NCBI GenBank assembly: GCA_963781885.1
Contig: CAWAHW010000004.1
Location: forward strand, 512,001-576,000
Direction: 5' to 3'
Origin: an uncultured Spirochaetota bacterium
Lineage (GTDB): Bacteria; Spirochaetota; Spirochaetia; SZUA-6; Fen-1364
DNA length: 64,000 bases
Made by a program: the position numbers and the translations under genes. Below are positions 19,458 through 59,978 of the stretch, in pieces. Positions within the stretch are counted from its first letter, which is position 1. Every line of letters starts with the position of its first letter. Under the pieces are notes generated by a model, which worked only from the letters and a program-made list of their open reading frames with translations, did no database searches and was not told the DNA's origin.

Positions 19458-19605
19458 TAATCACCATGGGGAGTAATATCCTGCGCCCGTGGCGGGTATT
19501 TCCCCGTTCCCTCCCGAGTTGCTCCAATCGCGACAAAAAGCGAATGGCGTGACAGTGGCCCTCGGCCGAGGCCCGGGGGGGATCATCAAAGCAAGGAGGA
19601 AAAAC

Positions 19606-21030
19606 ATGGCAATCGGCAAGACTCCGAAGGAGATCGTCTCCTTCATCTCGACGCAGAAAGTGGAGGTCGTCGACCTGCGCTTCATGGACTTCCCCGGGCT
19701 CTGGCAGCATTTCTCCGTCCCCGCGCGCGAGCTCACCGAGGAGGTCTTCGAAAAGGGTCTCGGCTTCGATGGATCGAGCATCAGGGGCTGGCAGGCGATC
19801 AACGAGTCCGACATGCTCGTGAAGCCGGTGGCGGACACGGCATTCATCGATCCGTTCCTCGCGGCGAAGACCCTCGTCGTGATCTGCAATATCTGCGACC
19901 CTCTCACCGGTGAAGACTACACGCGCGACCCGCGGAACATTTCCCGCAAGGCGGAGGCCTTCCTCAAGGGCACGGGGCTTGCCGACATCCCCTACTTCGG
20001 CCCCGAATGCGAGTTCTTCGTGTTCGACGACATCCGCTACGACCAGAACGAGCACGAGGGCTACTACCACATCGACTCCGTGGAAGGCCGCTGGAACACG
20101 GGGCGCAAAGAGGACCCCAACCTCGGCTACAAGATCCGCTACAAGGAAGGCTACTTCCCCGTCCCGCCGAACGACACGCTGCAGGACATCCGATCCGAGA
20201 TGATGCTCACGCTGGAGTCCATCGGCATCCCCATCGAGGCACAGCACCACGAGGTGGCCACCGGCGGCCAGTGCGAGATCGACATGCGCTTCAACAACCT
20301 GATCACGATGGCCGACAACGTTTTGAAATACAAGTACATCGTGAAGAACACGGCCAAGAAGCACAACAAGGTCGTCACCTTCATGCCCAAACCGCTGTTC
20401 GGCGACAACGGCAGCGGCATGCACGTCCACATGTCCTTCTGGAAGGACGGCAAGAACCTGTTCGCCGGCGACGGGTACGCGGGGCTCTCCCAGATGGCGC
20501 TCCACGCCATCGGCGGGCTCCTGAAGCACGCGCCGTCCCTCCTCGCGTTCGCCACGCCGACGACGAACAGCTTCAAGCGCCTGGTGCCGGGCTTCGAGGC
20601 GCCGGTGAACCTCGCCTATTCGCGCCGGAACAGGAGCGCATCCATCCGCATCCCGATGTACTCGCCGTCGCCCAAGGCGAAGAGGCTGGAGTTCCGCTGC
20701 CCGGATCCGAGCTGCAACCCCTACCTCACCTTCTCCGCAATGCTCATGGCGGCGGTGGACGGCATCCAGAACAAGATCGACCCGGGACAGCCCCTGGACA
20801 AGGACATCTACGACCTCCCGCCCGAGGAGCTCGCCGCGGTGCCGAAGACTCCGGGATCGCTCCGCGAGGTGCTCCGGTCGCTGCAGGCGGATCACGCCTA
20901 CCTCCTGAAGGGGGACGTGTTCACGACGGATGTCATCGAGACCTGGATCGACTACAAGATGAAGAACGAAGTGACGGCGCTGGATCTCCGACCGCATCCC
21001 TGGGAATACATGCTCTATTTCGATATCTGA
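19606..21030 (+). CDS. glnA: Glutamine synthetase type I (adenylylatable GSI-beta type)
   Basis: [38 protein letters not shown], adenylylation loop [11 protein letters not shown]; SD AAGGAGG. Confidence 0.97.
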
Positions 21031-21944: not shown

Positions 21945-23894
21945 TCATCGCGAAAGATTCCCCCGGATGAGGGAGACGAGCCCGGCAGGGTCGCTTTCCG
22001 CCAGCCGTGACAACACCCTTTTCCAGCGATAGGCGAAGCTCCCCTGCTCCTGGTCGGGAAGGTGCGCGAACAGCGTGTCGAATGCCTTGCGACGGCGCAC
22101 GTAGTCTTCCTGGAGACGCCGCAGCCTCTCCTCCAGGGTACCGAGGTAGACGCTGGTGAAGCCCGCGACGTCCGGCAGGAAGTCCGCCCTCCGGCGCACG
22201 GGGAGCGCGTAGGACGGGGCGAACTCCTCCAGGGGGCTTGCGTAGTCGTTGAAAGCCCCCGTATGGTCGGCGAGCACGATGTCGGCGGGCATTCCCGCCT
22301 CATCGAACACCATCACCTCGTCACCGTCGTCAAAGAGAGGACTGCCCCGCGCGTCGCAGCGGCCGACGACGATATTCGGCGCAGCCGCGCTCCCCAGCAG
22401 CCGCGCGAACTCCCGGGCGAAAACCTCCGATTCGAATCTGCGGGGTGGGAGCTTGTCGGTTGCCGTGCCGCGGATGTAGGCGCGCTCGAAGTACGGCGTC
22501 CAGATCGGGAAGGCGCCGCCCTCGCGCGTTTCATAGCGCTCGCTGATCCGCCGGGCCGCGATGCGGGCAGGAAGGTTCACGCCGAGCTGCCGGCAGCCAA
22601 GGCGCCGGTCCAGGATGTATTCCGTGTACTCCTCCGCCCTGATCATTGCATCCAGGAGACCGTCGCCCCGCTCGAGGTATTCCCGCACCCCCTGCTTCTG
22701 CATGCGGATGATGGACACGATCTCTTCGGGACTCTGCCGCTGTTTCAGCACCGCAACATACACGTCACGCCGCCCCCCCATGGCCGGTCTGCGGGACAGT
22801 GAGCTCACCACCCGACCGATATTCACGTGCTCCAGGTCCCCGTACTCGCGCACAAAATTGAAGATGAGCTTCCGCGGTTTCTCATCCGAAAGCCGGGCAA
22901 GCTCGGGGTCGGCGCTTCCGGTCGCCTGCTCCATGACGGGATCGAAGATGATCTCCCCCTGCTCGAAGCGGCCCCCGGGAAGCCATTCGATCTGGAGGAA
23001 GAACTCGGGGCTCAGGCCGAGCAGCGGCTCCTCCGCGGCCTGCTCGTCCTCGCGGCCCAGGAGCGCGCTTGCCATGCGGTTCCGCCATTCTATTGCATCG
23101 GGATCATCGCGGCGCAGCTCGGGTTTCACGCGGGAGACGAACAGCGCGGCCAGGTCCTCCCACGCCCGACGCAGCCCGGCGGGATCGAGGGAGCCCCAGT
23201 CCGGCCGCGCGAGATCGGCGCGTGGAATCCCCGTTCCCGGTGGAAAGAATGCGAGCTCGGGATAACCGGCGGCATTCCGCCTGCCGGCAAAATCGACGAT
23301 CTCCAAGAGCTGCGCGCGCAGGGACGCGTCGTCCAGGAGACCCAGCTCCTCGAAGCCCTGGCAGGTGAGATAGCGCACGCCCGTTGCAAGCCCGTAGTAG
23401 TAGATCTCGCGGCCGCCAATGCCGATCCGCGCGGATTCGATCAGCGCGCGCATCTCATCCGGTGTCTTGGGCAGGGGCGTGACGCGCCACAATTCGCCCC
23501 GCTCCCGGATGGCATCACGCACCCGCGCGTTGAGAACCCCGAGGAAATGGATCCTGTGCTTCGGCAGGAGCCGCTGGAGCATCTCGTCGGCCTGGAACGC
23601 CAGCGGCATTGCAAGCGGATCGGGTCGGATCAGGACCGCGTCGCGCGCGACGATCAGATCGACCGCGGCCTGCCATTCGAGATCCATCTCGGGCGGGCTG
23701 AGATCGGCAAGCCCCGCGCGGCGCCGCTCCGCGGCATACCAGTCGACGAATGCGTTGCGCTGCATCACGTGGATGCCCGGAAGCGTTACCAGGAGATCGT
23801 GGCGGGGAAATGCCGTCGCGATCCGCGGCGGGGATTTTCCGGTCGCAGCGGCGGCAAAAAGCGGCTCCCCGAGGAAGGTGATGGCAGCGCTCAT
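21945..23894 (-). CDS. Uncharacterised 649-aa protein with putative C-terminal protein-kinase-like domain
   Basis: Long ORF 7 bp downstream of the UroD-like gene; kinase-like motif order (see findings). The function is inference. Confidence 0.7.
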   Translation of the reverse strand: MSAAITFLGEPLFAAAATGKSPPRIATAFPRHDLLVTLPGIHVMQRNAFVDWYAAERRRAGLADLSPPEMDLEWQAAVDLIVARDAVLIRPDPLAMPLAFQADEMLQRLLPKHRIHFLGVLNARVRDAIRERGELWRVTPLPKTPDEMRALIESARIGIGGREIYYYGLATGVRYLTCQGFEELGLLDDASLRAQLLEIVDFAGRRNAAGYPELAFFPPGTGIPRADLARPDWGSLDPAGLRRAWEDLAALFVSRVKPELRRDDPDAIEWRNRMASALLGREDEQAAEEPLLGLSPEFFLQIEWLPGGRFEQGEIIFDPVMEQATGSADPELARLSDEKPRKLIFNFVREYGDLEHVNIGRVVSSLSRRPAMGGRRDVYVAVLKQRQSPEEIVSIIRMQKQGVREYLERGDGLLDAMIRAEEYTEYILDRRLGCRQLGVNLPARIAARRISERYETREGGAFPIWTPYFERAYIRGTATDKLPPRRFESEVFAREFARLLGSAAAPNIVVGRCDARGSPLFDDGDEVMVFDEAGMPADIVLADHTGAFNDYASPLEEFAPSYALPVRRRADFLPDVAGFTSVYLGTLEERLRRLQEDYVRRRKAFDTLFAHLPDQEQGSFAYRWKRVLSRLAESDPAGLVSLIRGNLSR

Positions 23895-23901
23895 GTCCGT
23901 C

Positions 23902-24955
23902 TCAGCCCGACGCGTGGCCCGTCTCGTAGAGCGCGACGATATTCTCCGGCGGGCTCACCGCCTGGATATTGTGGCAGGGAGCGAGGATGTAGCCGCCGCC
24001 CTCCCCGAGGATGCGCAGGTTGTCCTCCACCTCCCGGCGCACGTCATCGACGCTGCCGAACGGCAGCGTCCTCTGGTTGTCCACGCCGCCGTGGAAGACC
24101 AGACGTCCGCCGAAGTCGCGCTTCAGCCCTTCCCGCTCCATGCCGCCGCAGCGCCACTGGATGGGGTTGAGCACGTCGATGCCCGCCTCGATCATGTCGG
24201 GGATGATGCGCCGGATGCCGCCGTCGTTGTGATGGAACACGAAGGCGCCCGCCTGGTGGACCACGTCGAATGATGCGCTTCATGCGGGGGATGAGGAACT
24301 CGCGGATCTGCGCCGGCGACAGCATGAGATCGTCCTGCGCCCCCATGTCCTCGGCGACGTAGGAGAAGGTCACCTTGCCGGGGATTGCGTCGAATATCGC
24401 CTGGGTGTCGGCATAGGCGAGATCGAAGAGCCGGTCGAGGCACCAATGCGCGATGTCGGGCTTTTCGATCAGGTCCACGAATGCCTGCTCGTCGCCCCGA
24501 AGGTCCTTGTAGATGAGGAAAGGCTCCGAGCCGCCTCCCCTCACGGGAAACCGCCCGTGCGCCGCCACTTCCGCGGCGATGCAGGAGTAGTCCATCCAGT
24601 CGGGGCTCGGCCAGCGATAGCCCGCCTTGATATCCGCAAGGGTTTCGAAACCCGCCAGCGGATGATGAATACACTCGCGGTAGGAGCCCGTGCCATAGGA
24701 GACGCTGCGGTAGCGGCAGCCGAACGCATCGGTGTCCGGTGGAAGGGCCGGCCCGGCATAGCGCGGCTGGGCAAGGAACGGCTTGTCGATGTGCAGGCGG
24801 TCGTACATCTGCTCCACGGTGGCGCAGCCGAGATGCTTCATGAGCCGCGCGGTTGCTTCATCCGTCGCCCAGTAGTCCATCGGAACCCTGTCGGGCCTTT
24901 TCCGATTGAGGACCGCGAGCCATCTCTCCCGGGGGCTCATGGTGTCTTTTGCCAT
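23902..24955 (-). CDS. Uroporphyrinogen decarboxylase/MtaA-CmuA family protein, frameshift near 24270
   Basis: MSPRER...PDRVP, EDMGAQ, FHHNDG, FHGGVDNQ, GGYILAPCHNIQ; removing one T restores MKRIIDVVHQAG. Confidence 0.82.
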
Positions 24956-25058
24956 GAGACGATTGGGCGCCCGAGTGTGCTCCCTTGTCAACTCATCGGG
25001 CGCGAGGTGCGTGCCCCACGTGGGCGCGGACCGGCGTTTCTGCTACAATGCCGGCGCA

Positions 25059-28000
25059 ATGACAGTCTCTGCTTCGATCGCCGGCTCCGAAAAAGACCGA
25101 ACGCTCCCCGACGAGCATCGCGCGCGCATGGACGCGCGGTATTTCGTGCGCTTCACGCAGCCGGAAATCGACCGCCACGTCGAGGCCATGACGTCGCTGG
25201 GTCCCGCGCGGCCCGTCGCGCTCATCGTGGAGCCGCTGTCCGCCCACGAGGACGCGCAGGAGCTCGCCTGCACGGTCGTCGCCTTCGACCACCCCGGGGC
25301 ATTCTCCGCGATCGCCGGCATCCTCTCCTCGTTGGGCTTCGACATTCATGCAGGAGACATCTTCACGTGGCAGCCGCCGTCACGGAGCGCGCCGAAGGAT
25401 CCCGGCCTGCGGCGCCGCCGCATCGTTGACCGGTTGAGCGGCCGCGTTGCTCCCGACCAGTGGGACTCGTCCTGGCCCGCGCGCGCGGAGGAGAGGCTCC
25501 GCGAGGTGTTCGGACTCCTGGAGGCAGGCGGGGACGCCGCGGCGCGCGCGCGCCAGATCGTGAATGAAATGGCCGCACGCGCCCTGGGCCAGGGCGCCAC
25601 CGCGGCCCGCACGCTCTATCCCGTGCAGATCGAGGTGGGCAACGCGGGCGGCCGCACGCGCATGCGGGTCCTCTCGCAGGACACCCCCTTCTTCCTCTTC
25701 ACGTTTTCCACCGCCCTCACCCTCCAGGAGGTGTCGATCGAGCACGTCACCATCCGCACCGACGGGGGGCGCATCGAGGACGAGTTCGAGTTCGTCGACG
25801 CGCAGGGCAGACCCATCGAGGAGCCGGATCGCATCGACCGCATCAAGCTTTCCGTGCTCCTTACGAAGCAGTTCTCGTCGTTCCTGGAGAGCGCCCCCGA
25901 TCCTCTCGCCGCGCTCACCCGGTTCGAGCAGCTCGTGAAGGACGTGCTCGCCCGACCCCAGCAGGGACGGTGGGTGGAGCTGCTCTCCGACCAGAGCGTG
26001 CTGCGCGATCTCGCCCAGCTCCTCGGCGCGAGCACGTTCCTCTGGGAGGACTTCGTTCGCCTCCAGTACGAAGAGCTTCTCCCCATGCTCGCGCCCCACC
26101 TGGGCGGCGCGCGCTTTTCCGAGCCCCTGGAGGAGACGCCCGGGCGGCTGCGCGCGGCGCTCGCTGGCGCGGCAGACAGCGCCGATTTTGAGCGCCGCCT
26201 GAACGAGTTCAAGGACAGGGAGATCTATCTCTACGACCTGGACCACATCCTCACCACCCGGCGGGCAGCGGAATCATCCACCGGGGACGCCGCGGCCCCT
26301 GCCGCGTCATTTGAATCGGACTTCCTCCTCCTGAGCCGACGCCTGACCGCTCTTGCGGAAGCCGTCGTGGATGCCGCCGCGGCCCACGCATTCCGCGTGC
26401 TCGCCGAGCGATACGGTGAGCCGCGGACCGTCGCCGCGCTACCCGTGCGCTACGCGATACTCGGTCTGGGCAAGATGGGCGGCGCCGCCCTCGGGTATGC
26501 CTCCGACATCGAATGCCTCGTGGTCTACAGCGACAATGGGTCCACCGCGGGTCCGGAGAAGATCGAGAACCGCGAGTTTTTCGACATGATGGTCCGCGAG
26601 CTGCTCCGTCTCGTGCATGCCAAGCGCGAAGGGATATTCCACATCGACCTGCGGCTGCGCCCCTATGGGGCAGCGGGTCCGCTGGGATGCAGCCTGGAAA
26701 GCTTCTGCACGTACTACGCGCGGGGCGGCCCGGCGCACTCCTACGAAAGGCTTTCCCTCGTGCGCCTGCGCGCCATCGGCGGCGACCGGACATTCGGCAG
26801 CCAGATCGAGCGCCTGCGCGACGAGATGGTCTACTCGGCGGAGAGCATCGACCTCACCGCGCTGCGGGCGCTGCGGGCGCGGCAGGTGCAGGAAAAGACG
26901 GAACCCGGCCGGCTCAACGCGAAGTTCAGCCCCGGCGCGCTCGTCGACCTGGAATACGCCGTGCAGATCCTCCAGGTGATCCATGGCGCAACGGAGCGCC
27001 GGCTGCGCACGCCGCGCATCCACGAGGCGCTGGACGCCCTTGCCTCCATCGGCGTCGTTGAAAAGACGGAAGCGATCGAGCTGGTGGCCGCGTACCGCTT
27101 CTTCCGCCGGCTCATCAACGGCCTGCGCATGCTCCGCGGCTCCGCGCGCGACCTGGTGATCCCCGTTCTCGATTCCGACGAGTACCTCCATCTGGCGCGC
27201 CGCATGGGCTATGCTGGCGCGCCGGCCCTCACCCCCGCGCAGAAGCTGCACCTGGACTTCGAGACGAGCACGGCGGGGGTGCGCGCCTTCGTGGAGCGCC
27301 ACTTCGGCAGGGACAGCCTGCCCGGCGCGCCCGTGGTGACGGTGGCGGACCTGATCCTCTCCGATGCGATTTCCCCGGCCCTTTGCGCGCGCACGCTGGA
27401 GGAGCGGGGTTTCCGCGAGCCTGCCCGCGCGCTGCTCAACCTCCGGCACATCCGCGGCGAAGGGCGCACGCTTTTCGCGCGGCTTGCGATACTCGCCTGC
27501 GACATGCTGTCGCATCGCCCCGACCCCGACATGGCGCTCAACAACTGGGAGCGCTTTCTTCACGCGCTGCCCGATCCGCAGGCGCACCTGCAGGAGATGC
27601 TGTCGCAGCCGATGCGGCTGGAAATCCTGCTCAGCATCTTCTCCGCGAGCCAGTTCCTCGCCGACACGCTTGTGCGGGAACCGGCCCTGCTTGATTTCAT
27701 CGGCAGCGCGGAAGCCCTCCACGCGCCCCGCGCGAGCGCGGCGGTGGCCGCGGAGCTTGCCGCGATTTCCGCGCGCTGCGCCGACCGGGAGCAGTGGCGC
27801 GACGCGCTGCGTCGCTACCGGCGCCGCGAAATTCTCCGCATCGGCGCGCGCGATATCTGCCTTGGCGTCGCTACGCAGAAGATCATGGAAGAGCTCTCCG
27901 ATCTTGCCAACGGCGTCATCGAGGCGGCGCTCGTTCGGCTCCGGGCGTCGGCGCGCGGGGAGTCCGGTGGAATCAAGGGCTTCTGCATCGTCGCGTTCGG

Positions 28001-28836
28001 AAAGCTCGGCGCGCGGGAGCTGAATTACAGCTCGGACATCGACCTGCTCGCGCTGTGCACCGCGGACGGCACGTCCGATCCCGAAGAGGCGGCCACCCGG
28101 CTCATGGCGGACCTGCGCGCGGACCTCTCCTCCCACACGGTTGAAGGGTACGCCTACCGGGTGGACCTGCGCTTGCGTCCTTACGGCAGCTCGGGACAGC
28201 TCGTCTTCACGCTCCCGGGCCTCCTGGAATACTACACGACGAACGCGGCGCTGTGGGAGCTGCAGGCCCTGCTCAAAGCGCGCCCCGTTGCGGGCGACCT
28301 TGACGTCGGTGCGGCATTTCTCGAATCCGTGCGGCCAATGCTCGCCGCCCGGCACGACCCCGTCCAGGTGAGCCTCACGATCGACCGTCTCCGCCGGGAG
28401 GCGGTGCGCAGCCTTGCCCGCAGCATCCTCGCCACGCTGGACATCAAGACGGGTCTCGGCGGGCTGCGCGACGTCGAGTTCCTGGTCCAGGGCCTGCAGC
28501 TCGTCAATGCCCACGCCCGGCCCGAGCTCCTGTGCGGCGGCACGCTTCCCGCGCTGGAAGCCCTGGCAAAGGCAGGAATCCTGCCGTCCGATACCGCGGA
28601 CCAGCTCACGCGGGATTACATCTTCCTGCGACGGGTCGAGCATTTCCTGCAGATCTACCGAGGATCGCCAGACGCACAGCCTTCCGCAAGACCCTGCACA
28701 GCTGCGGGCGCTGGCCCGGCTCATGCTCGGCAGCACTGCCACGGGCGACCAGCTCCTCGCCGCGCTCTCTGACAGGTTCACGAGGATACGCGCCGTCTAC
28801 CAGGAGTTCCTTCGGCCGCCGGCGCAGGAGCCGTGA
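25059..28836 (+). CDS. glnE: Glutamine synthetase adenylyltransferase with N-terminal tandem ACT domains, frameshift near 28659
   Basis: Two GlnE NT domains (LGKMGGAALGYASDIE...DLRLRPYG; FGKLGARELNYSSDID...DLRLRPYG); removing one C restores LQIYEDRQTHSLP and ends at TGA 28836. Confidence 0.9.
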
Positions 28837-28854: not shown

Positions 28855-30408
28855 CTACCGCAGCGGCCCGACCGCCTCGTTCACCCGGTCGATGATGGTG
28901 CCGGCCTTCAAGAGCGCGAGCATTGCCTCGATGTCGCGCGAGAGCTCCCGGTCCCGGTCGAGGACGGGTATCTTCTCCCGGCACGTCCTGTATGCAGCCT
29001 CGGTGCCGCGCCCCGGTCTTCCCTTCGTGAGCAGGTCCACCGCCTGGCATCCGCAGAGAAGCTCGATGGCAAGGACCGCCTCGGCGTTCGCGATGACGGT
29101 CCTGCACTTGCGCGCCGCGATCGTGCCCATGCTCACGTGGTCTTCCTTGTTCGCGGAGGTGGGGATGGAATCGACCGAGGCCGGGTGGCAGAGCACCTTG
29201 TTCTCCGAGACGAGCGCGGCGGCGGTGTACTGCGCGATCATGAAACCCGAGTTCACGCCGGAATCGTTCACGAGGAAAGCCGGCAGCCCGCTGAGCTGCG
29301 GGTTCACGAGCCTCTCGATCCGGCGCTCGGAAATGTCGGCGAGCTCCGCCGCGGCCATGCAGAGATAGTCGGCGGCGAGCGCGAGCGGCTGGCCGTGGAA
29401 GTTCCCGCCGAGCAGGAACTCACCGGTCTCGGGGAAGATGAGAGGATTCGTGGTGGCGGAATCCAGCTCGATCTCGACCACCCTGCGGACATGCGCGACA
29501 GCGTCGCGGCTTGCCCCGTGCACCTGCGGGGAGCAGCGCAGCGTGTAGGCGTCCTGTATCCTGCCGCAGTCCTTGTGGGACGACATGATCGCGCTGTCCC
29601 GCGTGATGCGGTACATGTTGTCCGCTGCCGCGATCTGGCCGGGGTGCGGGCGCGCGGCGTGGATGCGCGGGTCGAACTCCACGTTGGTGCCCATGAGCAC
29701 CTCCAGGCTGATGGAGGAGGCGATGTCCGCGGTGCGCATGAGCCTTTCCGCGTCGTGCACGGCAATGGCCGCGATCCCGGCCATCACCTGCGTACCGTTG
29801 ATGAGGGCAAGACCCTCCCCCGCGTCCAGCACGATGGGGCGCAGCCCCGCTGCCGCAAGCGCCTCCGCGCCGGTCATGCGCCGTCCCTTGAAACAGGCAT
29901 CGCCTTTGCCGATGAGCACCAGCGCGAGATGCGCCATGGGAGCAAGGTCTCCGCTTGCCCCGACGGACCCTTTCTCCGGCACGACAGGCGCGACGCCGGC
30001 GTTCAGAAGGTCCCGCAGCGCCTCCAGCGTCTCCCCGCGCAGCCCCGCGCGGCCGTGGGCGAGGTCCTGCACGCGCACCGCCATGGTGGCCCGCACGACC
30101 TCCTCCGCGAGCGGATCACCGACGCCCGCGGCATGGCTCATGAGGATGTTCTCCTGAAGCGCGCGCGTCTGCGCGGGCGGTATCGCCACGTCGCACAGCG
30201 CGCCGAAACCCGTTGTGACGCCGTAGACGGCGCGCCGCTCGGCGACCCATTTCTCCACGAGAGCGCGCGCCGCGCGGACCCGGCTCATGGCCTCGTCGGC
30301 GATCTGCACGCGCGCGCCGTGCCGCGCCACGGCGACCAGATCCTCAATCGAAAGAGGGCCGTCGCCCATTGTCACGGCCGCCGTCTGCGGCCGGGCCTTG
30401 ACGCTCAT
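28855..30408 (-). CDS. hutH: Histidine ammonia-lyase
   Basis: VYGVTTGFG, MIO motif GSVGASGDL, QDAYTLRC, GGNFHG, EDHVSMG. Confidence 0.96.
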   Translation of the reverse strand: MSVKARPQTAAVTMGDGPLSIEDLVAVARHGARVQIADEAMSRVRAARALVEKWVAERRAVYGVTTGFGALCDVAIPPAQTRALQENILMSHAAGVGDPLAEEVVRATMAVRVQDLAHGRAGLRGETLEALRDLLNAGVAPVVPEKGSVGASGDLAPMAHLALVLIGKGDACFKGRRMTGAEALAAAGLRPIVLDAGEGLALINGTQVMAGIAAIAVHDAERLMRTADIASSISLEVLMGTNVEFDPRIHAARPHPGQIAAADNMYRITRDSAIMSSHKDCGRIQDAYTLRCSPQVHGASRDAVAHVRRVVEIELDSATTNPLIFPETGEFLLGGNFHGQPLALAADYLCMAAAELADISERRIERLVNPQLSGLPAFLVNDSGVNSGFMIAQYTAAALVSENKVLCHPASVDSIPTSANKEDHVSMGTIAARKCRTVIANAEAVLAIELLCGCQAVDLLTKGRPGRGTEAAYRTCREKIPVLDRDRELSRDIEAMLALLKAGTIIDRVNEAVGPLR

Positions 30409-31046
30409 AGCGTCCCCTCCGAAAGATGCCTGCCGATTTCCCTGTCAATGTGCCCGGTGACGGAAAGCACCGATTCGAGGGTGCGCGCCGCCTGCTCATC
30501 GAGCCCCCTGCGGACGGACGCGTCGAGAATGCCGGGGAGATTGATGCGCACGTTGTATGCCGCGGCCCGGGCGCCCGCGCGCACCATGGCCGCGGCAGAG
30601 GCGGCATCCGTCACGCAGGAAGGGTCGCCGCGGAGGAAAACCTCCTCGACGACGGTCGCCAGGACGCCCAGGGTTTCCAGCGTCTCCAAAGGCACCTCGG
30701 CGCAGTGGATCAGGGCCGCCTGGAGCGCAGCCTTGCGCGCCGTGCGCGCGGGCTCCGTCGCGTGCGGCAGACGGCGCGCCTCCATCACGGCGGTGAATGC
30801 GTCGCAATCCTCCTGCACGAGGCAGCGCAGCCGGTCGCCGTGCTTCTCTGCGGCGTTCAGCGCATCCCGCAATTCCATCCAGGATGAGGCACGGCTCTCC
30901 TTTCCCAGCGTGATCCGGCACACCATGGCGCAGAGCGACGCCGCAAGCGCCCCGGAGAGCGCCGCGACGCTGCCGCCTCCCGGCGCCGGAGAGTCGGAGC
31001 CGAGCTCCGCGAGAAAATCTTCCATCGACATTGCTGAGAGCTTCAC
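30405..31046 (-). CDS. Formiminotetrahydrofolate cyclodeaminase/cyclohydrolase (FTCD C-terminal family)
   Basis: SPAPGGGSVAAL, AAYNVRINL; position within hut operon. Confidence 0.88.
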   Translation of the reverse strand: MKLSAMSMEDFLAELGSDSPAPGGGSVAALSGALAASLCAMVCRITLGKESRASSWMELRDALNAAEKHGDRLRCLVQEDCDAFTAVMEARRLPHATEPARTARKAALQAALIHCAEVPLETLETLGVLATVVEEVFLRGDPSCVTDAASAAAMVRAGARAAAYNVRINLPGILDASVRRGLDEQAARTLESVLSVTGHIDREIGRHLSEGTL

Positions 31047-32327
31047 GTTCCTTCCCTTTCATCCAAAGCCCGGCCGCCGCGCGCGGCCAGCGCGCCGCCC
31101 TTGTAGACATCGACGACCGGTGAGATTCCCGCGCGGAATGCAAGGACCGCGGGCGATTCCCCGTCGAGGAGGAGAAAATCGGCCGCCTTCCCGGGGGTGA
31201 GACTCCCCGCCTCGCGCCCCCTCCCGACGGCATATGCTGCATTCAAGGTGGAGGCAGCGAGCGCCTCGTTCACCGAAAGGCCCATCATCATCACGGAAAG
31301 CCCGAACGCAAAGGGCATCGACTCGACGCAGGACGAGCCAGGGTTGCAGTCCGTGGCGATCGCCACGGGCAGCCCGGTTTCGATCATCCTGCGCGCGCGG
31401 GCAAACGGCCGCCGCATGCTGAATGCGGTCACCGGCAGGAGCACCGCGACGGAACCCGCTGTTGCCAGGGCGCGAATACCCTCGTCGGAGGCGGCCAGGA
31501 GATGGTCCGCCGATGCCGCGCAAAGCGATGCGGCCAGCAGCGCGCCCCCATGTCTCGTGGAGCTCGTCGGCATGCATCTTCACACCCATGCCCGCTGACG
31601 CCGCGGCCTCCAGGATCTTCCGCGACTGCTCCGGACTGAAGACCCCCTGCTCGCAGAAGACGTCGCAGAAAAGGGCCCCCGCGCGGCGGGCTTCGGGAAG
31701 CATGGCGATCACCGCCTCAACGTAGTCATCGGGCCTGCCCTCGAACTCGGGAGGCACCGCGTGCGCCGCCATGAACGTCGGGATGACTGAAAGGGCCGTT
31801 TCCTCTCCCAGCCTGCGGATCGCGGCGAGCTGTTTCAGCTCGTTGTCCACGTCCAGGCCATAGCCGGTTTTAATTTCGATGGTGGTCGTGCCGAGGGAAA
31901 GCGCCGACAGCGCCCGTCGGCGCGTTGCCGCGTACAGCTCCGCAGGCGCGGCGGCGCGCACCGCTGCCACGGAGGAGAGTATGCCCCCTCCCTTCCTCAA
32001 TATATCGAGGTAGTCCGCCCCTTCCAGCCTCTGGCTGAACTCCGATTCCCGCGGCCGGGTGAAGCAGAGATGGGTGTGCGGATCGACAAAGCCGGGAACC
32101 ATGCACAAGCCGCGGCAATCGGTCTCCGACTCCAGCGTGCGCCGGCCGGGGTCGCCGAGCGCGCCGAGCACTGCCCCCTCATCGCCCACGGTGACAATGC
32201 GCCCGTCCCGGCACAGGAGGGCCCCCGGGATGTACGCGGCCACCTCCGCCTGTGCACGGCCTGCCGCGGCTTTGCCAGGGTCCCCGGGCGTGTAGATCCT
32301 CGCATTGCGGAAGAGCCTGAGACCCAT
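31043..32327 (-). CDS. hutI: Imidazolonepropionase, frameshift near 31550
   Basis: PGFVDPHTH, GGGILSSV, EIKTGYGL, DVFCE, HADEL, then SADHL and ATDCNPG in the shifted frame. Confidence 0.9.
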
Positions 32328-32331
32328 GGCG

Positions 32332-33240
32332 CTAGCCCTGCATGTCCAGGAGGCGCAGGTCGAGCACCTGCGCGTCGTCGAATCCCGCGATCTGGAGGCA
32401 ATGCGTGGCGGATGCAAGAAGCGCGGCGGCGGGAACCATCCCGTACACCTCGGTCTCCCGCACCTTCACACCCTGCTCGTGCGCTTTCTCACGCACCGCC
32501 TGGAGCACGACGTGCAGCGGGGATGCGGCGAAATCGGTGACGTTGATGCTCACCTGGACGATGCCCTTCTCCTTCAAGGCAATGCCTACGGCTTTCACGC
32601 CGGGGAGCCCGCCGCCAGAGGCGCGTATCGCCCGCGCGATGGAGCGCGCGATCGCCAGGTCGCTGCTTTCAAGATTGACGTTGAAGGCAACGAGAAAACG
32701 GCGCGCTCCGATGGCTGTCGCCCCGGCGCTCGGATGAATGCGGGGACCGCCCACGTCGGGCTCCCTCCCAGGATCTTCGCATTCCCGCAGCAGTGCCTCG
32801 AACTGGCCCCGTCTCACGTCTTCAAGCTTCCACCGGTCGGGCCGGCGCGCGGCGGCCTCGTAGAAGTAGACCGGCACGCCCGTTGCCTTCACGAAAGAGT
32901 CGGCGAACGTGCGTGCAAGCTCGACGCACGCCTCCATGGAAATGCCGCGCACGGGCACGAAGGGGATCACGTCCACCGCGCCCATCCGGGGGTGCTCCCC
33001 GGTGTGCGTGCGCAGGTCGATGGCCGCGACGGCGACCTTTGCCGATGCGATCAACGCGGCCTGGAGCGGCTCCGGCTCACCGACGAGACTCACGACCAGC
33101 CTGTTGTGGTCGGGATCGGCGCGGCGATCCAGCAGGTAGACGCCCGGTGCGCCCTGAAACGGGGCAACCAGCGCGGCGATGACCTCCTGCCGCCGGCCCT
33201 CGCTGTAATTGGGGACGCATTCGACCAGCTGCCTGTTCAC
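32332..33240 (-). CDS. ftcD: Glutamate formimidoyltransferase
   Basis: [40 protein letters not shown]. Confidence 0.94.
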
Positions 33241-34970
33241 GACCGCGCGTCCGCGCGTATCGCGCCCGTGCCGACCAGCGGCGTCTTCACGCCCCTCTCC
33301 CGCGCCGCCTCGATGGCGCGTTCATAGCCGGCATCGGCGTGCCGGATGATGCCCATGGCCGGGTCATTCCGCAGCACGGTGGTCACGCGCAGCTCCCCCT
33401 CGTCGGTGCCGTCCGCGAGCGTCACCTGCCCGGCGTGCAGGGAGTAGCCGATGCCCACGCCGCCTCCGTGGTGGAATGAGGTCCAGCTCGCGCCCGAGGC
33501 CACGTTCACCATGAGGTTGAGCAGGGGCCAGTCGGCCACCGCGTCGCTGCCGTCGCGCATCGCCTCGGTCTCCCGGTGGGGGGAGGCGACCGAGCCGGCA
33601 TCGAGATGGTCGCGGCCGATGACCAGCGGAGCGCGGACCCGGCCCGTGCGGACGAGATCGTTGAAGAGCTTCCCCGCCTTGTCCCGCTCGCCATAGCCCA
33701 GCCAGCAGATGCGGGCGGGCAGACCCATATGCTTCACCCGCTGCCCCGCCATGCGCAGCCAGCGGGTCATGCGCTGCTTGTGCGGGAAGCATGCCAGGAG
33801 CGCCTCATCGGTGGCCTCGATGTCGCGGGGGTCGCCGGAAAGCGCCGCCCAACGGAAGGGGCCTTCGCCGTCGCAGAAGAGGGGTCGGATGTACGCGGGC
33901 ACGAAGCCCGGGTAGGCGAATGCGTCGGCGACGCCTGCGCGCTGCGCCTGGCCGCGCAGGTTGTTGCCGTAGTCGAAGGCAATGGAGCCGTGCGCCTGCA
34001 TGGCAAGGATGGCGCGGCAGTGCCGGGCCATGGAATCCAGGGACGCCGCCGTGTAGCGGCCGGGGTCGGCGGCGCGCAGCGCGAGGGCCGCATCGAGACG
34101 CATGCCCGCGGGCACGTAGCCGCCCAGCTCGTCGTGCGCGCTGGTCTGATCGGTGACGACGTCGGGGATGAAGCCCAGCTCCACCATGCGGGGCAGGACG
34201 TCGGCCGCATTGCCAAGAAGACCGATGGAGAGCGGCTGCTTCCTTTGCGCCGCCTCGCGCGCCATCGCGATGGCCGCGGCGAGGTCCCCTGCCACCGCGT
34301 CGAGATAGCCCGTGTCGAGCCGGCGGCGGATGCGGCGCGGGTCCACGTCCACGCAGACCATCACGCCGTCGTTCATCGTCACGGCCAACGGCTGCGCGCC
34401 GCCCATCCCGCCCAGACCCGCGCTCACCGCGATGCGCCCGGCGAGCGATCCGCCGAAGTGCCGCTCGGCGAGCGCGGCGAAGGTCTCGAACGTTCCCTGG
34501 AGTATTCCCTGCGTGCCGATGTAGATCCAGGAGCCGGCCGTCATCTGGCCGTACATCATGAGACCGCGCGCCTCCAGGTCCCGGAAGTGCTCCCAGGTCG
34601 CCCACTTCGGCACGAGATTGGAATTGGCGATCATGACCCGTGGTGACATTCGGTGCGTGCGCAGGACGCCGACCGGTTTACCCGACTGCACGAGCAGCGT
34701 CTCGTCGTCGGCAAGAGAGAGGAGCGTGTCCACGATGGCGTCGAAGCAGGCCCAGGAGCGCGCCGCGCGTCCCGTCCCGCCGTAGACGATCAGCGCATCG
34801 GGGTTCTCCGCGTTTTCCGGGTCGAGGTTGTTGCAAAGCATCCGCAGGGCCGCCTCCTGGTGCCAGCCCTTGCAGTGCAGCTCCGTGCCGCGCGGCGCCC
34901 TGACCGGACGCGCCTTCCCACAGCCGATGCAGAGCTCTTCCCGAAGCCTCTCACCCGCAGTTCCTTCCAT
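33237..34970 (-). CDS. hutU: Urocanate hydratase
   Basis: [46 protein letters not shown]. Confidence 0.97.
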
Positions 34971-35084
34971 CGCATTCCCCCGGTCATGCAAGTATAGCAG
35001 GAAACCCAGGGCGCGCGCGAGCAGTCCGGCCGCAGGCGCCCGGATTCTTCTTCATCGATGGGAGAAGCGCGCGAAAGACGGGGG

Positions 35085-55766: not shown

Positions 55767-56841
55767 ATGGAAAGCAGAAAAGGTTCAGGAAAAAGGGCGA
55801 CACTCAAGGACGTAGCCACCCTTGCCGGCGTCTCCACGACGCTCGTCTCCAACATCATCAACAAGGTGCCCGGCTCCATCCCCCAGGGAACTCGCGCGCG
55901 GGTGTTCAGCGCCATCGACGAGCTGCAATACGTGCCCAGCGCCATGGCGCGCGGCCTCAGGAGCAAAAAGACCCATGTCATCGCGCAGCTCGTCCTCCAT
56001 CATAAGCCGACTCTCACCACGGCCGATCCCTGCCTTGCGGGAAAGACATCGGCGCTCCTGGACTACCTCCTCCCGCACGGGTACTACCATCTTACCTATC
56101 CGGTTCCCGAGGGCGAGATCCACAAGCGCGAGCTCATGACGTTCCTGAAGAGCTATCGCGTGGATGGCCTTGTCATTGACCATTCATTGGAGGAGGACCC
56201 GATCATTGAGCTCGTGGCGCGGACGGGTCTTCCCTTCGTCGTCTACGACCAGGCCTCCGCGCCGTGCGAAGGATCGGCCGTCGTGAATATGGACGACGAG
56301 GCGGGCATACGACTCACCACCGGGCACCTCATCGCGCGCGGTCACACGCGCATCGGTTTCCTGCAGGGGGAGATCAGGTCGTGGTGCGACCGCCGGCGGC
56401 TTGAGACCTTCAAGAAGGTCCTGGCCGAGCATCGCATTCCCCTGCGCGAGGAGTGGATACGGGGCGACGGGTCCTCCTCCATGGAGGATGGGTATCGGTC
56501 CACCGGGGAGATGCTCGATCTGCCGGAAGCGCCGACGGCGATTGCCGCAACGGGCGACCTTCTTGCAATTGGCGCGCTGCGTCAGGCGCGTGACCGCGGC
56601 CTGCGGGTGCCGGAGGACATCGCGCTGATCGGTTTCGACGACATCCCCACCGTCTCCCTGCTCACCCCGCCGCTTTCCACCGTTGCCCTCTCCTACGCGC
56701 GCATGGGAGAGCTGGCAGGCCAACAGCTCCTGACGCTGATCGAGCAGCCTTCGCTGCGGCTACGAGCCGGTGACGGTCCCCGTCCGCCTTGTGGAGCGCG
56801 CCTCGACAGCGGCGACACGCGAGCAATCCGGGCCGCCATGA
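55767..56841 (+). CDS. LacI family transcriptional regulator, frameshift near 56755
   Basis: TLKDVATLAGVSTTLVS HTH, IGFDD, PPLSTV; the shifted frame gives the typical ending VPVRLVERAST...* at 56841. Confidence 0.88.
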
Positions 56842-56882
56842 GCGGTCCGGCTAAGTCTTCCGAAGAGAAAGGAGCATCGGGT

Positions 56883-58157
56883 ATGAACAAAACGCTTCTC
56901 TGTCTTTTCTGCTTCGTCCTTGCCGTGGGCTTCGCCTGGGGCGCCGACCAGAAGCAGCTGTCGATCTGGATCGATGAGAACGACAAGGAAGGCCAGGAGA
57001 TCGTCGCCGACTGGCAGGCTGCCCACCCGGATGTGAACGTGGTCATCACGCAGAAGCACGGGGACTACAAGCAGGAGCAGCAGCTCGCCATGCAGAGCGG
57101 CACGGGTCCTGACCTCCTGTACGTGAACCAGAGCGCGAGCGAGATGGGCGTGTTCGCAAACCAGGGCCTCGTCATCTCCCTGGCCCCGTACTACAAGAAG
57201 TACGGCTGGGACAAGACGATCGGTGCCTCCTTCCTCAAGCCGAACTACTGGGACACGAATACCCACATGCTGGGCGTCGGCGTTCCCTACACCATCGGCA
57301 GCGCCATCGAGTGCGCGGTCGGCTACTACAACAAGGACCTCTTTGCAAAGGCCGGCATCGCAAAGCCGCCTGCCACCTGGGACGACTGGGAGAAGGACCT
57401 CGCCACGCTCAAGAAGGCCGGCATCACACCCATCGTCACGGGCATCACCGGCGACTCCGGCTGGTGCGCGCTGCACCAGGTACAGGTCCAGACGGAGCGG
57501 TTCATGAGCCGCGCGCAGGTGAACGCGTACATCTTCGCGACAAAGGGCGCGTCGTTCAATCTGCCCGAGGTCATCAAGGGCGCGAAGAACATCCAGGACT
57601 GGGTGAAGAAGGGATACTACAATGACGGCTTCACCGGCGTGGGATGGGACGACTCGGAGAAGATGTTCGTGGCGGGCAAGGGCGCGATGTTCATGAGCGG
57701 CACCTGGGCGGCGCAGGATTTCACCAACTACGCCAAGGACACCCCCGTCAACTGGGACGTGTTCAAGCTGCCTTCGAAAATGGTCTTCGGAGCCAATTCC
57801 ACCGGCATCGGGATCGAGACAACCTGCAAGTATCCCGACGTGGCGGCGGACCTCATCAACGCGCTGGTCATGGACTACGCGCATCACCTGAAATGGAACT
57901 TCCTCCCCCTCAACCTGCCGGCGCTTCTCAAGGACAAGACGGTCGATCTCTCCCCGCAGTACAAGAACATGATCGCCGCCATCAACCAGGTGAGCGCGGA
58001 GGACGGTCTGGGCTACTATTATGACTGGCCGACGCCAAGCATGTATGACACAATGACGGCCAACTGCCAGAAGCTGATGGGAATGCAGATCACCCCGGAG
58101 GACTTTGCAAAGGCAATCGACAAGGATCTCCAGGCGTACATTGCGACGCGGAAATAG
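56883..58157 (+). CDS. Carbohydrate ABC transporter solute-binding protein
   Basis: SD AAGGAG, signal peptide MNKTLL...AWG, GPDL, YYNKDLFAKAGI, F..GKGAMF.SGTW. Confidence 0.9.
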   Translation: MNKTLLCLFCFVLAVGFAWGADQKQLSIWIDENDKEGQEIVADWQAAHPDVNVVITQKHGDYKQEQQLAMQSGTGPDLLYVNQSASEMGVFANQGLVISLAPYYKKYGWDKTIGASFLKPNYWDTNTHMLGVGVPYTIGSAIECAVGYYNKDLFAKAGIAKPPATWDDWEKDLATLKKAGITPIVTGITGDSGWCALHQVQVQTERFMSRAQVNAYIFATKGASFNLPEVIKGAKNIQDWVKKGYYNDGFTGVGWDDSEKMFVAGKGAMFMSGTWAAQDFTNYAKDTPVNWDVFKLPSKMVFGANSTGIGIETTCKYPDVAADLINALVMDYAHHLKWNFLPLNLPALLKDKTVDLSPQYKNMIAAINQVSAEDGLGYYYDWPTPSMYDTMTANCQKLMGMQITPEDFAKAIDKDLQAYIATRK

Positions 58158-58215: not shown

Positions 58216-59097
58216 ATGCTCAGAAAAACCCCGGCGATACGCGCGCGAGAGATGCTGGTCTTCCTCTTCCCCGGTCTCCTTCTCTATCTTGCCTTCTTCC
58301 TGGTGCCCACGGCCCAGGGGTTCCTCTTCAGTCTCTTCAGCTGGGAGGGGTATCGCAGGGGCGCATTCGTGGGGTTTGCGAACTTCTCGCGGATGTTCAC
58401 CGACGACACCCTGAGGGAGGCGATCCGGAACGTCCTGTATTTCATGGTGGTGTACGCCACCGTGCCGGTCGTGCTCGGCCTGCTCTGCGCGGCGGTCCTC
58501 TCCCGCGCACGGGTCAGGGGTCTGCTGGCGTTCCGCAGCATCTTCTACCTGCCGCAGGTCTTCAATCTCACGGCAGTGGGGATCCTCTTCCGGTGGATCG
58601 CGCATCCCGACTATGGCATCGTCAATTCCGCGCTTGGCTGGCTGGGGCTCAACGCATGGCGGCGGCCGTGGCTGGGGGATCCGGCGACGGCGATCCACGC
58701 CGTCGGCCTCATGACGGTCTGGTACATGTACGGCTACGTGATGGTGATCTTCTTCGCGGGGATGCAGAGGATATCGGAGAGCCTCTACGAGGCGGCCGCC
58801 CTTGACGGGGCGGGCGCGGCGCGGCAGCTTTTCAGTATCACGGTGCCGGCCCTGCGGAACGAGTTCACCATCATCATCATCCTGATGCTCATCAACGCGC
58901 TGAACACCTATCCCATGATCGCCGCGGCCACCAATGGCGGCCCCGGCTACTCGACAATGGTGCCCGCGCTGTACGGGTTCCGTGTCTTCGGGTTCCAGAA
59001 CAATGTCGGCTACGGCTCGGCCATCATCAACTCGCTGGTCGTCGTCACCATCGTGATCTCCGCCAGCATCTATCTCGTGCGCGAGAGGGAAGGGTGA
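58216..59097 (+). CDS. Carbohydrate ABC transporter permease (MalF-like)
   Basis: FVGFANF, EAA motif LYEAAALDGA. Confidence 0.92.
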   Translation: MLRKTPAIRAREMLVFLFPGLLLYLAFFLVPTAQGFLFSLFSWEGYRRGAFVGFANFSRMFTDDTLREAIRNVLYFMVVYATVPVVLGLLCAAVLSRARVRGLLAFRSIFYLPQVFNLTAVGILFRWIAHPDYGIVNSALGWLGLNAWRRPWLGDPATAIHAVGLMTVWYMYGYVMVIFFAGMQRISESLYEAAALDGAGAARQLFSITVPALRNEFTIIIILMLINALNTYPMIAAATNGGPGYSTMVPALYGFRVFGFQNNVGYGSAIINSLVVVTIVISASIYLVREREG

Positions 59098-59967
59098 GCA
59101 TGCGCGCCGGACACGTCGGCCTGTCGGCCTGGCCCGCGGCGCGCGCCGCGGTGGCGCGCGTCATCCTCTACGCGCTCCTTGTCATGCTGGTCGTCATCAC
59201 CCTGTTGCCCGTTCTTACCCTCGTCCTTGCATCCTTCAAGAAGGACATGGAGCTGATCCAGGCCGGCGGCTTTGCGCTCCCCCGCGTGTTCCAGTGGGTG
59301 AACTACGCGCAGGCCTGGCAGAAAGGGCACCTGGGCATCTATTTCCTGAACACCGTCATCGTCACGCTGGCGGTCGTCATCCTCGGCATCGGTTTCGCGG
59401 TGCTCTGTGCGTTCAGCCTCGTCACGCTCCGGGTGCCCCTGCGCCGGCTGTGGTCGTTCCTGTTTCTCATCGGCATCATCTTCCCTGAGGCGTCCATCAT
59501 CATCCCTTCGTATTTCAACCTGCGCGCCCTGGGGCTGTACAACACCTACTGGGCGCTCATCCTGCCGCAGACGGCGATGAGCATCGCCTTCGGCGCGTTC
59601 TTCCTCCAACCCGCCCTGCGGAGCATCCCGCATGACCTGATTGACTGCGCGCAGCTCGACGGCTGCGGGAACTTCACGCTCCTGCGGCGGGTCATCGCTC
59701 CAATGCTCCAGCCCGCGGTCGCGGCTCTTGCCGTGTTCTTCTTCCTGGCCACGTGGAACGACTTCCTCGTGCCGTCGATCCTCGTGTCCCGGGACGAGCT
59801 GCGGACGCTGCCATTCGGTCTCCTGAGCTACCAGCAGCGCTACACCTCCAATGTGCCTCTGATCGCGGCCGGCGACAATGATCTCGGCCGCGCCGGTCAT
59901 CGTCTTCTATCTCATCTTCCAGCGCCAGGTGATCCAGGGCATCACCATGGGCGCCCTGAAAGAATAA
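59094..59967 (+). CDS. Carbohydrate ABC transporter permease (MalG-like), frameshift near 59873
   Basis: LIDCAQLDGC, WNDFL; the shifted frame ends PVIVFYLIFQRQVIQGITMGALKE* at 59967. Confidence 0.88.
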
Positions 59968-59978
59968 GAGGGGGATTC

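Follow-up and report, generated by a model that had tools for sequence, protein, structure and literature searches.

Locus and gene structure of the long-form GlnE

GlnE, which turns glutamine synthetase off and on by AMPylation and deAMPylation, is the textbook bifunctional enzyme with opposing activities in homologous halves, and the control exerted on it by GlnD, PII and glutamine is a model case of nitrogen signalling; in Proteobacteria, the relay runs from GlnD through uridylylated PII (PII-UMP) to GlnE. Here, we analyzed a 64,000-nucleotide stretch of DNA from an uncultured Spirochaetota bacterium (the window; positions 512,001 to 576,000 of contig CAWAHW010000004.1, assembly GCA_963781885.1), which encodes a long-form GlnE. 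In canonical GlnE, the N-terminal half is the adenylyl-removing (AR) domain, which deAMPylates by phosphorolysis, and the C-terminal half is the adenylyltransferase (AT) domain, as described in a 2026 bioRxiv preprint on H. seropedicae GlnE (10.64898/2026.09.02.748916), a 2025 review (PMC12409994) and PMC4454073. Judged from its sequence, the long-form protein probably consists of a GlnD-type ACT-ACT pair, an AT-class half with a DxE motif and an AR-class half, in that order, the reverse of the AR-AT order of E. coli, alphaproteobacterial and actinobacterial GlnE.

Pfam models PF03710 (310.9 bits) and PF08335 (118.9 bits) each matched two stretches of the protein, giving two tandem GlnE halves, hereafter D1 and D2 (Table 1). 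E. coli GlnE is likewise built from two homologous PF03710-PF08335 halves (AR half, 1V4A; AT half, 3K7D), and the window protein matched both solved halves with E-values of 1e-28 to 1e-44, at only ~30% identity. Unlike E. coli GlnE, the long form carries an additional GlnD-like ACT-ACT N-terminus of ~268 aa. All NCBIfam GlnE equivalogs scored below their cut-offs (NF008292, 424.3 vs 487; NF010707, 440.9 vs 625; NF010706, 322.4 vs 724).

The gene runs from a likely ATG start at 25059 to a TGA stop at 28834-28836. The plus-strand open reading frame (ORF) 24906..28772 contains it, and the 28772 end of this ORF lies in the wrong frame. The frame breaks directly after ...RRVEHFLQIY (Tyr codon 28656-28658), where an extra base in the 'cc' pair of 'tacc' shifts the last 58 codons; the true C-terminus, EDRQTHSLPQDPAQLRALARLML...QEFLRPPAQEP, is read in the next frame up to the TGA. 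The initial annotation had placed the protein at 25860..28836, a span that silently crosses this +1 frameshift and begins downstream of the ACT-ACT part. A relative of 1274 aa with 84% identity (P0004) has no break at this site and reads continuously through ...HFLQIYEDRQTHSLPQDP..., and a relative with 91% identity (P0003) is also broken close to its 3' end. Because a similar break splits a neighbouring URO-D-like gene, an assembly indel, and not decay, appears to be the likeliest origin of the extra base. A decaying pseudogene, whose odd features would be meaningless, could also have lost its last 58 codons in this manner. This is very improbable, since the damage is confined to the 3' tail, the remainder shares 84-91% identity with relatives that are intact or nearly so, the architecture is common to 182 of 183 family members (see below), and the break in the neighbouring gene points to assembly indels.

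A predicted GlnD-type ACT-ACT pair at the N-terminus

Residues 20-265 of the long-form protein aligned with positions 622-843 of the 850 positions of the GlnD model TIGR01693 (E = 5.2e-23), and the GlnD equivalogs matched solely via this ACT region (81 bits vs a cut-off of 519). In a BLASTP comparison with E. coli GlnD, the N-terminal region aligned with GlnD residues 665-849, which we take to be the ACT1/ACT2 region; the Pfam ACT model scored 25.9 bits, under its cut-off of 27. An AlphaFold2 model of the first 274 residues, computed from a 66-sequence alignment (A2), had a predicted local distance difference test score (pLDDT) of 90.8 and a predicted template modelling score (pTM) of 0.89, and showed two beta-alpha-beta-beta-alpha units behind a helical lead. 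Searched against the PDB with Foldseek, this model matched the ACT regulatory domains of aspartate kinase (3l76, 2zho, 2dt9) and threonine deaminase (9d2r, 8y1j) as well as the N-terminal part of the M. smegmatis large glutamate dehydrogenase (E = 2e-5). The Foldseek probability was 0.97-1.0 for 3l76, 9d2r, 8y1j and 7jsr and 0.72-0.77 for 2zho and 2dt9, while the TM-scores were low (0.18-0.36) because the comparison uses whole chains.

The match to the C-terminal end of TIGR01693, the two units of the predicted model and the ACT domains found by Foldseek confirmed the initial annotation in that the N-terminus is a predicted ACT-ACT pair, homologous to the C-terminal end of GlnD and adjoining D1. 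The long form thus shares with GlnD the ACT-ACT region and related nucleotidyltransferase and PF08335 modules, but differs from it in several ways. The ACT pair is N-terminal in the long form and C-terminal in GlnD. The long form has two GlnE-type nucleotidyltransferase halves against the single nucleotidyltransferase domain of GlnD, and no HD domain was reported in the Pfam search of the long-form GlnE.

Class-specific residues in the two halves

The initial annotation had read the domain order from eight motifs of the window protein set against eight E. coli motifs. All eight window motifs were exact and in the stated order, and the eight E. coli motifs were exact in the E. coli K-12 GlnE sequence. 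D1 contains LGYASDIE at residue 479 (26490-26513), RPYGAAG at 535 (26658-26678), LVRLR at 568 and GALVDLEY at 627, and D2 contains ELNYSSDID at 988 (28017-28043), YRVDLRLRP at 1034, LLKARP at 1072 and DIKTGLGGLRDVEFLVQ at 1129 (28440-28490); these motif numbers follow P0001, which starts at window position 25056. In E. coli K-12 GlnE, the N-terminal AR half has ELNFSSDID (167), RVDMRLRP (221), KAR (260) and IKLGAGGIREIEF (316), and the C-terminal AT half has ELGYSSDLD (695), GAAG (759), LVRAR (787) and GGITDIEF (850). LVRLR alone is not diagnostic because a second copy lies in D2 at residue 959.

Counted from the Met at 25059, the catalytic and class residues of D1 are G479 (at the N169/G697 position), D483-x-E485, D530-x-RLRP, R569 (as AT R789) and V629 (at the AR R324 position). 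Those of D2 are N989 (equivalent to N169), D993-x-D995, Y-R-V-D1036-LRLRP, K1073, R1137 (R324) and E1194/Q1198 (E381/Q385). All 14 sequences of alignment A1 retain D483/E485/D530 and D993/D995/D1036 without change, and G-x11-D-x-[DE] and D-x-RLRP are likewise invariant in both halves; E. coli GlnE carries the same G-x11-D-x-D/E and D-x-RLRP motifs in both halves. From these residues, both halves of the long form look catalytically competent. The DxE of D1 in place of DxD, which sets the long form apart from the first half of E. coli GlnE, had been noted in the initial annotation and is real and conserved. A regular expression located 'G...SD.E' ahead of 'N...SD.D' in 182 of the 183 family proteins, the remaining one matching the second motif only; the G/DxE-then-N/DxD order is therefore a trait of the family. 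It is the opposite of E. coli GlnE, where N169 precedes G697. In PMC4454073, N169 is given as essential for AR and dispensable for AT (citing Xu et al. 2010), and N169/G697 is the sole class-specific conserved pair, by which the authors classified the domains. Applied to G in D1 and N in D2, this rule places D1 in the AT class and D2 in the AR class.

To extend the comparison beyond this pair, we aligned 69 long-form proteins (the window protein and those from 68 of 80 loci that gave two clean domain envelopes) with 62 canonical GlnE proteins (53 gamma-, 1 beta- and 6 alphaproteobacterial and 2 actinobacterial). To count as a signature, a residue had to reach at least 80% conservation within every one of the four canonical groups in one class and stay below 15% in the other class; 12 columns qualified (Table 2). 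The four AR-only invariants N169, R324, E381 and Q385 occur together in D2 of all 69 proteins and in D1 of none. R324 is probably ancestral because E. coli GlnD also has R there, whereas at the N169 position GlnD has H, as opposed to G in D1 and N in D2. The AR tail motif R.EH.LQ...D.QTH.LP is present in the N halves of E. coli, Sinorhizobium and Tsukamurella and in D2 (RRVEHFLQIY/EDRQTHSLP at 28629-28686, cut by the frameshift at the slash), and is absent from GlnD, the AT halves and D1. Only two class-specific indels hold across the four canonical groups, each spanning a single column, one of them specific to AT and one to AR. One of these columns is gapped in both long-form halves (D1, 1.0; D2, 0.97), and at the other D1 is AR-like in a trivial way.

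Table 2. Class-signature columns in canonical GlnE and in the two long-form halves; the other four of the 12 columns are mixed or match neither class.
Column	Canonical state	D1	D2
N169	AR-only, 62/62 AR	G 69/69	N 69/69
R324	AR-only, 62/62 AR	V 66/69	R 69/69
E381	AR-only, 62/62 AR	I 67/69	E 69/69
Q385	AR-only, 62/62 AR	R 69/69	Q 69/69
AT R789 / AR K260	Class-specific	R 66/69	K 69/69
G338	AR-type G	G (AR-like)	Mostly A (AT-like)
Q334	AR-type Q	Q	Q
D854	AT-type D	D	D

Phylogenetic placement of the two halves

We split the proteins into half-domains and built three unrooted trees with AR and AT references, since a lone GlnD outgroup on a very long branch would probably be attracted to the long D1 stem. 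The canonical references were E. coli and 12 named genomes found by tblastn in PLSDB records (L002-L013: Aeromonas, Acinetobacter, Legionella, Neisseria, five alphaproteobacteria plus Shinella, Tsukamurella and Nonomuraea), with representatives at 50% identity. The first tree was a quick IQ-TREE run of 78 half-domains under LG+C20 with posterior mean site frequencies (PMSF). The second was a careful LG+C20 PMSF tree of 58 half-domains, from 12 long-form (7 phylum-level labels), 15 proteobacterial and 2 actinobacterial GlnE proteins, and the third was a FastTree of 262 half-domains. D1 grouped with proteobacterial AT in all three: the support was 94 by the Shimodaira-Hasegawa-like approximate likelihood ratio test (SH-aLRT) in the first tree, 98/92 (ultrafast bootstrap/SH-aLRT) in the second and 90 in the third. 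D2 grouped with AR at 91/60 in the second tree and 94 in the third. The resulting split separates D1 and proteobacterial AT from D2, AR and the actinobacterial halves. If one ancestral two-domain protein is assumed, every descendant has its two halves on opposite sides of the duplication, and the position of D2 next to AR then puts D1 and AT together on one side of the root; without this assumption, the duplication may have been an independent one. The opposite outcome, D1 with AR and D2 with AT, was not seen in any tree.

The two actinobacterial GlnE proteins (Tsukamurella, L011; Nonomuraea, L012) have AR-type residues in the N half and AT-type residues in the C half, i.e. the canonical order, and have no ACT domains, unlike the long form. 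Their halves are close to those of the long form in places: D2 has WELQALLKAR and GGLRDVEF where the actinobacterial N half has WEFQALLKAR and GGLRDVEF, and the D1 tail LRMLRGSARDL.LP is similar to LFLVRGKPVDQLPG of the actinobacterial C half. A further difference from the long form is that the actinobacterial N and C halves are sisters in every tree (99/98 in the second tree). This clustering may point to gene conversion between the halves, to compositional attraction or to a duplication of their own.

Weighing the order of the two halves

Several results weigh against a reversed order. Among the signature columns, G338 is AR-like in D1 and mostly AT-like in D2, and Q334 and D854 have the same residue in both halves. 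In profile-profile comparisons (hhalign, global mode), D1 was equidistant from AR (441.7) and AT (453.4), and its subsets were opposed, with 226 for AR and 317 for AT among alphaproteobacterial profiles and 425 for AR and 378 for AT among gammaproteobacterial ones, the latter favouring AR. Hidden Markov models (HMMs) of AR and AT from 146 gammaproteobacterial GlnE proteins (145 representatives plus E. coli) gave D1 an AR-minus-AT difference of +28.9 (10 to 45.5), next to +50.9 (24 to 97) for D2 (n = 114 each), and scoring region by region gave the same picture as whole halves. These HMMs separated the alphaproteobacterial control halves strongly (+127 to +211 and -99 to -117) and also classified the betaproteobacterial ones well, while the actinobacterial controls were weak (N half, ~+34; C half, -5 to -14). 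With phmmer against the E. coli structures, D1 scored 122.5 bits with AR (1v4a) and 101.7 bits with AT (3k7d), and the second half (best stretch 794-1200 of a whole-protein query) scored 154.5 bits with AT and 147.6 bits with AR. Simple similarity is ambiguous or slightly canonical. On the side of the trees, the ultrafast bootstrap correlation of the second tree was 0.976, not fully settled, and a clean single AR/AT duplication was not recovered because the actinobacterial N and C halves are sisters. In approximately unbiased (AU) tests, forcing the canonical arrangement (D1 with AR and D2 with AT, actinobacterial rows free) cost 14.76 log-likelihood units (p = 0.0498), a marginal rejection, and joining D1 with D2 against proteobacterial AR and AT cost 16.17 units and was not rejected (p = 0.127).

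The phmmer scores and the marginal AU rejection would fit a canonical functional order, with D1 as AR and D2 as AT as in E. coli and the motif resemblances being convergent or plesiomorphic. NF008292 also aligns colinearly with the protein (residues 427-1158 to positions 117-873 of 946), but this colinearity is imposed by the order of the model, and the half-by-half control failed. We regard the canonical order as unlikely: D1 lacks N169, reported as essential for AR in PMC4454073, together with the three other AR-only invariants, whereas D2 has all four, and the three trees place the halves in the opposite way. In hhalign, moreover, D2 scored 681.7 with AR against 536.0 with AT, and AR was likewise ahead with subset profiles (alphaproteobacterial AR/AT, 471/370; gammaproteobacterial AR/AT, 653/491). 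The hhalign controls behaved as expected (alpha AR-gamma AR, 709; alpha AR-gamma AT, 314; alpha AT-gamma AT, 578; alpha AT-gamma AR, 379).

A separate mapping of each half onto the NCBIfam models was left unused, since in the control the E. coli AT half matched best on the N half of NF010707; in this mapping, D1 went to the N half of all three models, and D2 to the N half in two models and to the C half in the third.

The similarity of D1 to both classes may also reflect an independent origin, in which the long-form family duplicated an AR-like domain or fused separate genes, and D1 is a convergent AT, a regulatory pseudo-enzyme or an enzyme acting on another target, not a true AT orthologue. 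Besides the profile equidistance of D1 and the survival of a single D1+D2 clan in the AU test, the D1 stem is the longest in the second tree (1.34 changes per column), the sister halves of the actinobacterial proteins make homogenisation or duplication within a lineage plausible, and where D1 has DxE, the C (AT) halves of 13 named canonical proteins all have SD.D. However, the D1-D2 profile score (347) is below those of D1-AT (453), D1-AR (442) and D2-AR (682), the free tree joins D1 to AT, and an adenylylatable glutamine synthetase (GS) is linked to the gene (see below), so some half must add AMP. We therefore give an independent origin a small share of the probability, though a larger one than the canonical order. 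A decayed pseudo-enzyme in particular is unlikely because the full catalytic set of D1 is invariant and D1 evolves more slowly than D2. Within the family, D1 has shorter internal branches and more invariant columns than D2, and yet is the half most diverged from canonical GlnE.

Taken half by half, the residues, profiles and trees assign D2 to the AR class with high confidence. D1 appears to be a non-AR, catalytically intact half with DxE that leans towards AT; its AT identity is weaker than the AR identity of D2 because fewer characters support it. The initial annotation had described a circularly permuted GlnE subfamily with the sensor next to the AT-like half. The reversed class order and the position of the sensor beside D1 were supported, but circular permutation is only one candidate for the historical mechanism: because D1 and D2 as sisters are not rejected, the evidence carries a reversed order of sequence classes, which may have arisen by permutation, separate fusion or independent duplication.

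Distribution and gene context of the family

The best 120 protein relatives are 1009-1342 aa long and 50-100% identical to the window protein. Scanning 185,579 species genomes with two family-specific peptide patterns, we found the family in at least 564 of them (at least 598 matching stretches, 564 encoding a relative), and kept 80 loci, all from metagenome-assembled genomes (MAGs). These carry the labels Spirochaetota, Deltaproteobacteria/Desulfobacterota, Planctomycetota, Lentisphaerota/Victivallales, Kiritimatiellia, Verrucomicrobia, Fibrobacterota and one 'Paceibacterota', and the closest among the genome-scan matches listed is from a Spirochaetia MAG (75% identity). The Candidatus Paceibacterota MAG (L060) carries the long-form gene on a 6.5-kb contig, where a binning error is likelier than a true occurrence in a reduced genome of the candidate phyla radiation. 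Among plasmid records, tblastn found no long-form GlnE; the 30 records that matched were sources of canonical GlnE only.

Family members are annotated as 'glutamate-ammonia-ligase adenylyltransferase', a plain label that hides the reversed order because domain databases do not separate AR from AT. A full-text literature search, with subscription papers outside its scope, returned no account of a GlnE with ACT domains or with AR and AT in reverse order. The tree in PMC4454073 took in GS adenylyltransferases of Planctomycetia and Deltaproteobacteria, and a word search of its main text and two supplements found no mention of a reversed or permuted domain order.

The presumed substrate of the enzyme, a type I GS, is encoded by glnA upstream in the window (Table 1), and an adenylylatable type I GS in the genome is a feature shared with E. 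coli. Over its full length, the window GlnA shares 53% identity with E. coli GlnA, and its Tyr aligns with the Tyr of E. coli DKNLYDLPPEE, the adenylylated residue. For the H. seropedicae enzyme, a bioRxiv preprint gives Y400, in the AMP-loop (10.64898/2026.09.02.748916). A type I glnA lies within 7 kb of the long-form gene in at least 31 of the 69 loci, with 30 ORFs upstream on the same strand; the count is a lower bound because many loci are short-flanked. Actinobacterial GlnE resembles many long-form loci in this respect, with glnA immediately upstream. A gene for a GAF-sigma54-activator is nearby in 11 of the 69 loci, and no PII gene is among the recurrent neighbours of the long-form gene in these loci.

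A possible glutamine switch within one enzyme

The observations made here are the architecture, the class-specific residues, the tree positions, the conservation across the family and the linkage to an adenylylatable glnA, and from them we infer which half may have which activity, what the ACT pair may bind and how far the enzyme may be independent of PII. In the reversed arrangement, D1 would transfer AMP from ATP onto the conserved Tyr in the type I GS whose gene lies 4 kb upstream, and D2 would take the AMP off GS by phosphorolysis. The N-terminal ACT pair would bind an amino acid, most likely glutamine, and thereby tilt the enzyme toward AMPylation, and such a switch could be partly or wholly free of GlnD and PII-UMP.

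Extending this proposal, a GlnD-derived ACT-ACT pair fused to the AMPylating half of a domain-swapped GlnE might form a self-contained glutamine switch. In Spirochaetota, Desulfobacterota and the Planctomycetes-Verrucomicrobia-Chlamydiae (PVC) group, glutamine binding to the enzyme itself would then set the AMPylation of GS, replacing the relay from GlnD through PII-UMP to GlnE, and the AT-AR order would have come from separate assembly, or from permutation by duplication and truncation, of two ancient catalytic modules. We put this forward tentatively, as a possibility that is more doubtful than the domain order itself.

If the AT-AR order with a GlnD-type sensor on the AT side is correct, models of intramolecular signalling based on the E. 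coli order would not be transferable to these phyla, and the ACT pair would offer a direct, testable route to glutamine sensing without GlnD. It would concern a large family, found in at least 564 species genomes, from anaerobic lineages in which nitrogen control has been little studied. The family may also serve as a natural experiment on the residues that decide whether a GlnE half acts as a transferase or as a phosphorylase.

Other features of the window

Between glnA and the long-form glnE, on the opposite strand, lie the URO-D/methyltransferase-like gene, which a frameshift near 24250 divides into two ORFs that overlap, and a 649-aa ORF without a Pfam or NCBIfam match, which may be spurious in DNA of 67% GC.

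Table 1. Coordinates of the features described in the text, numbered from the first nucleotide of the window.
Feature	Position	Strand	Description	Basis
glnA	19603..21030	+	Type I glutamine synthetase, presumed substrate; 4 kb upstream of glnE	Pfam; TIGR00653, 659 bits
649-aa ORF	21945-23894	-	Between glnA and glnE	
URO-D/methyltransferase-like gene	23902-24991	-	Overlapping ORFs 24044-24991 and 23902-24264	
Long-form glnE-like gene	25059..28836	+	~1258 codons with the frameshift read through	ORF list, translation
N-terminal sensor module	25059..25859	+	Short helical lead; predicted ACT1 strands ~25215-25448 with helices to ~25592; predicted ACT2 ~25626-25877	
Half 1 (D1)	25860..27317	+	Nucleotidyltransferase and PF08335 domain, AT-leaning class	Domain envelope
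D1-D2 linker	27318..27482	+	Gap separating the two domain envelopes	
Half 2 (D2)	27483..28833	+	Nucleotidyltransferase and PF08335 domain, AR class	Domain envelope
Extra base	28658/28659	+	In the 'cc' pair of 'tacc'; last 58 glnE codons out of frame	
Histidine-utilisation cluster	28855-34991	-	Downstream of glnE	
Joined-domain ORF	55767-58157	+	LacI-family regulator and extracellular solute-binding protein	
Joined-domain ORF	59094-61379	+	ABC permease and family 4 glycosyl hydrolase	

Convergent with glnE is a histidine-utilisation (hut) cluster that encodes an aromatic amino acid lyase (hutH-like), an FTCD_C cyclodeaminase, an amidohydrolase (hutI-like), a formiminotransferase and a urocanase, in keeping with the formiminotransferase route. 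Farther downstream, two ORFs each join domains that normally occur on separate proteins, a LacI-family regulator with an extracellular solute-binding protein in one and an ATP-binding cassette (ABC) permease with a family 4 glycosyl hydrolase in the other; both may owe this to stops lost or frameshifts introduced by assembly errors, or may be real fusions.

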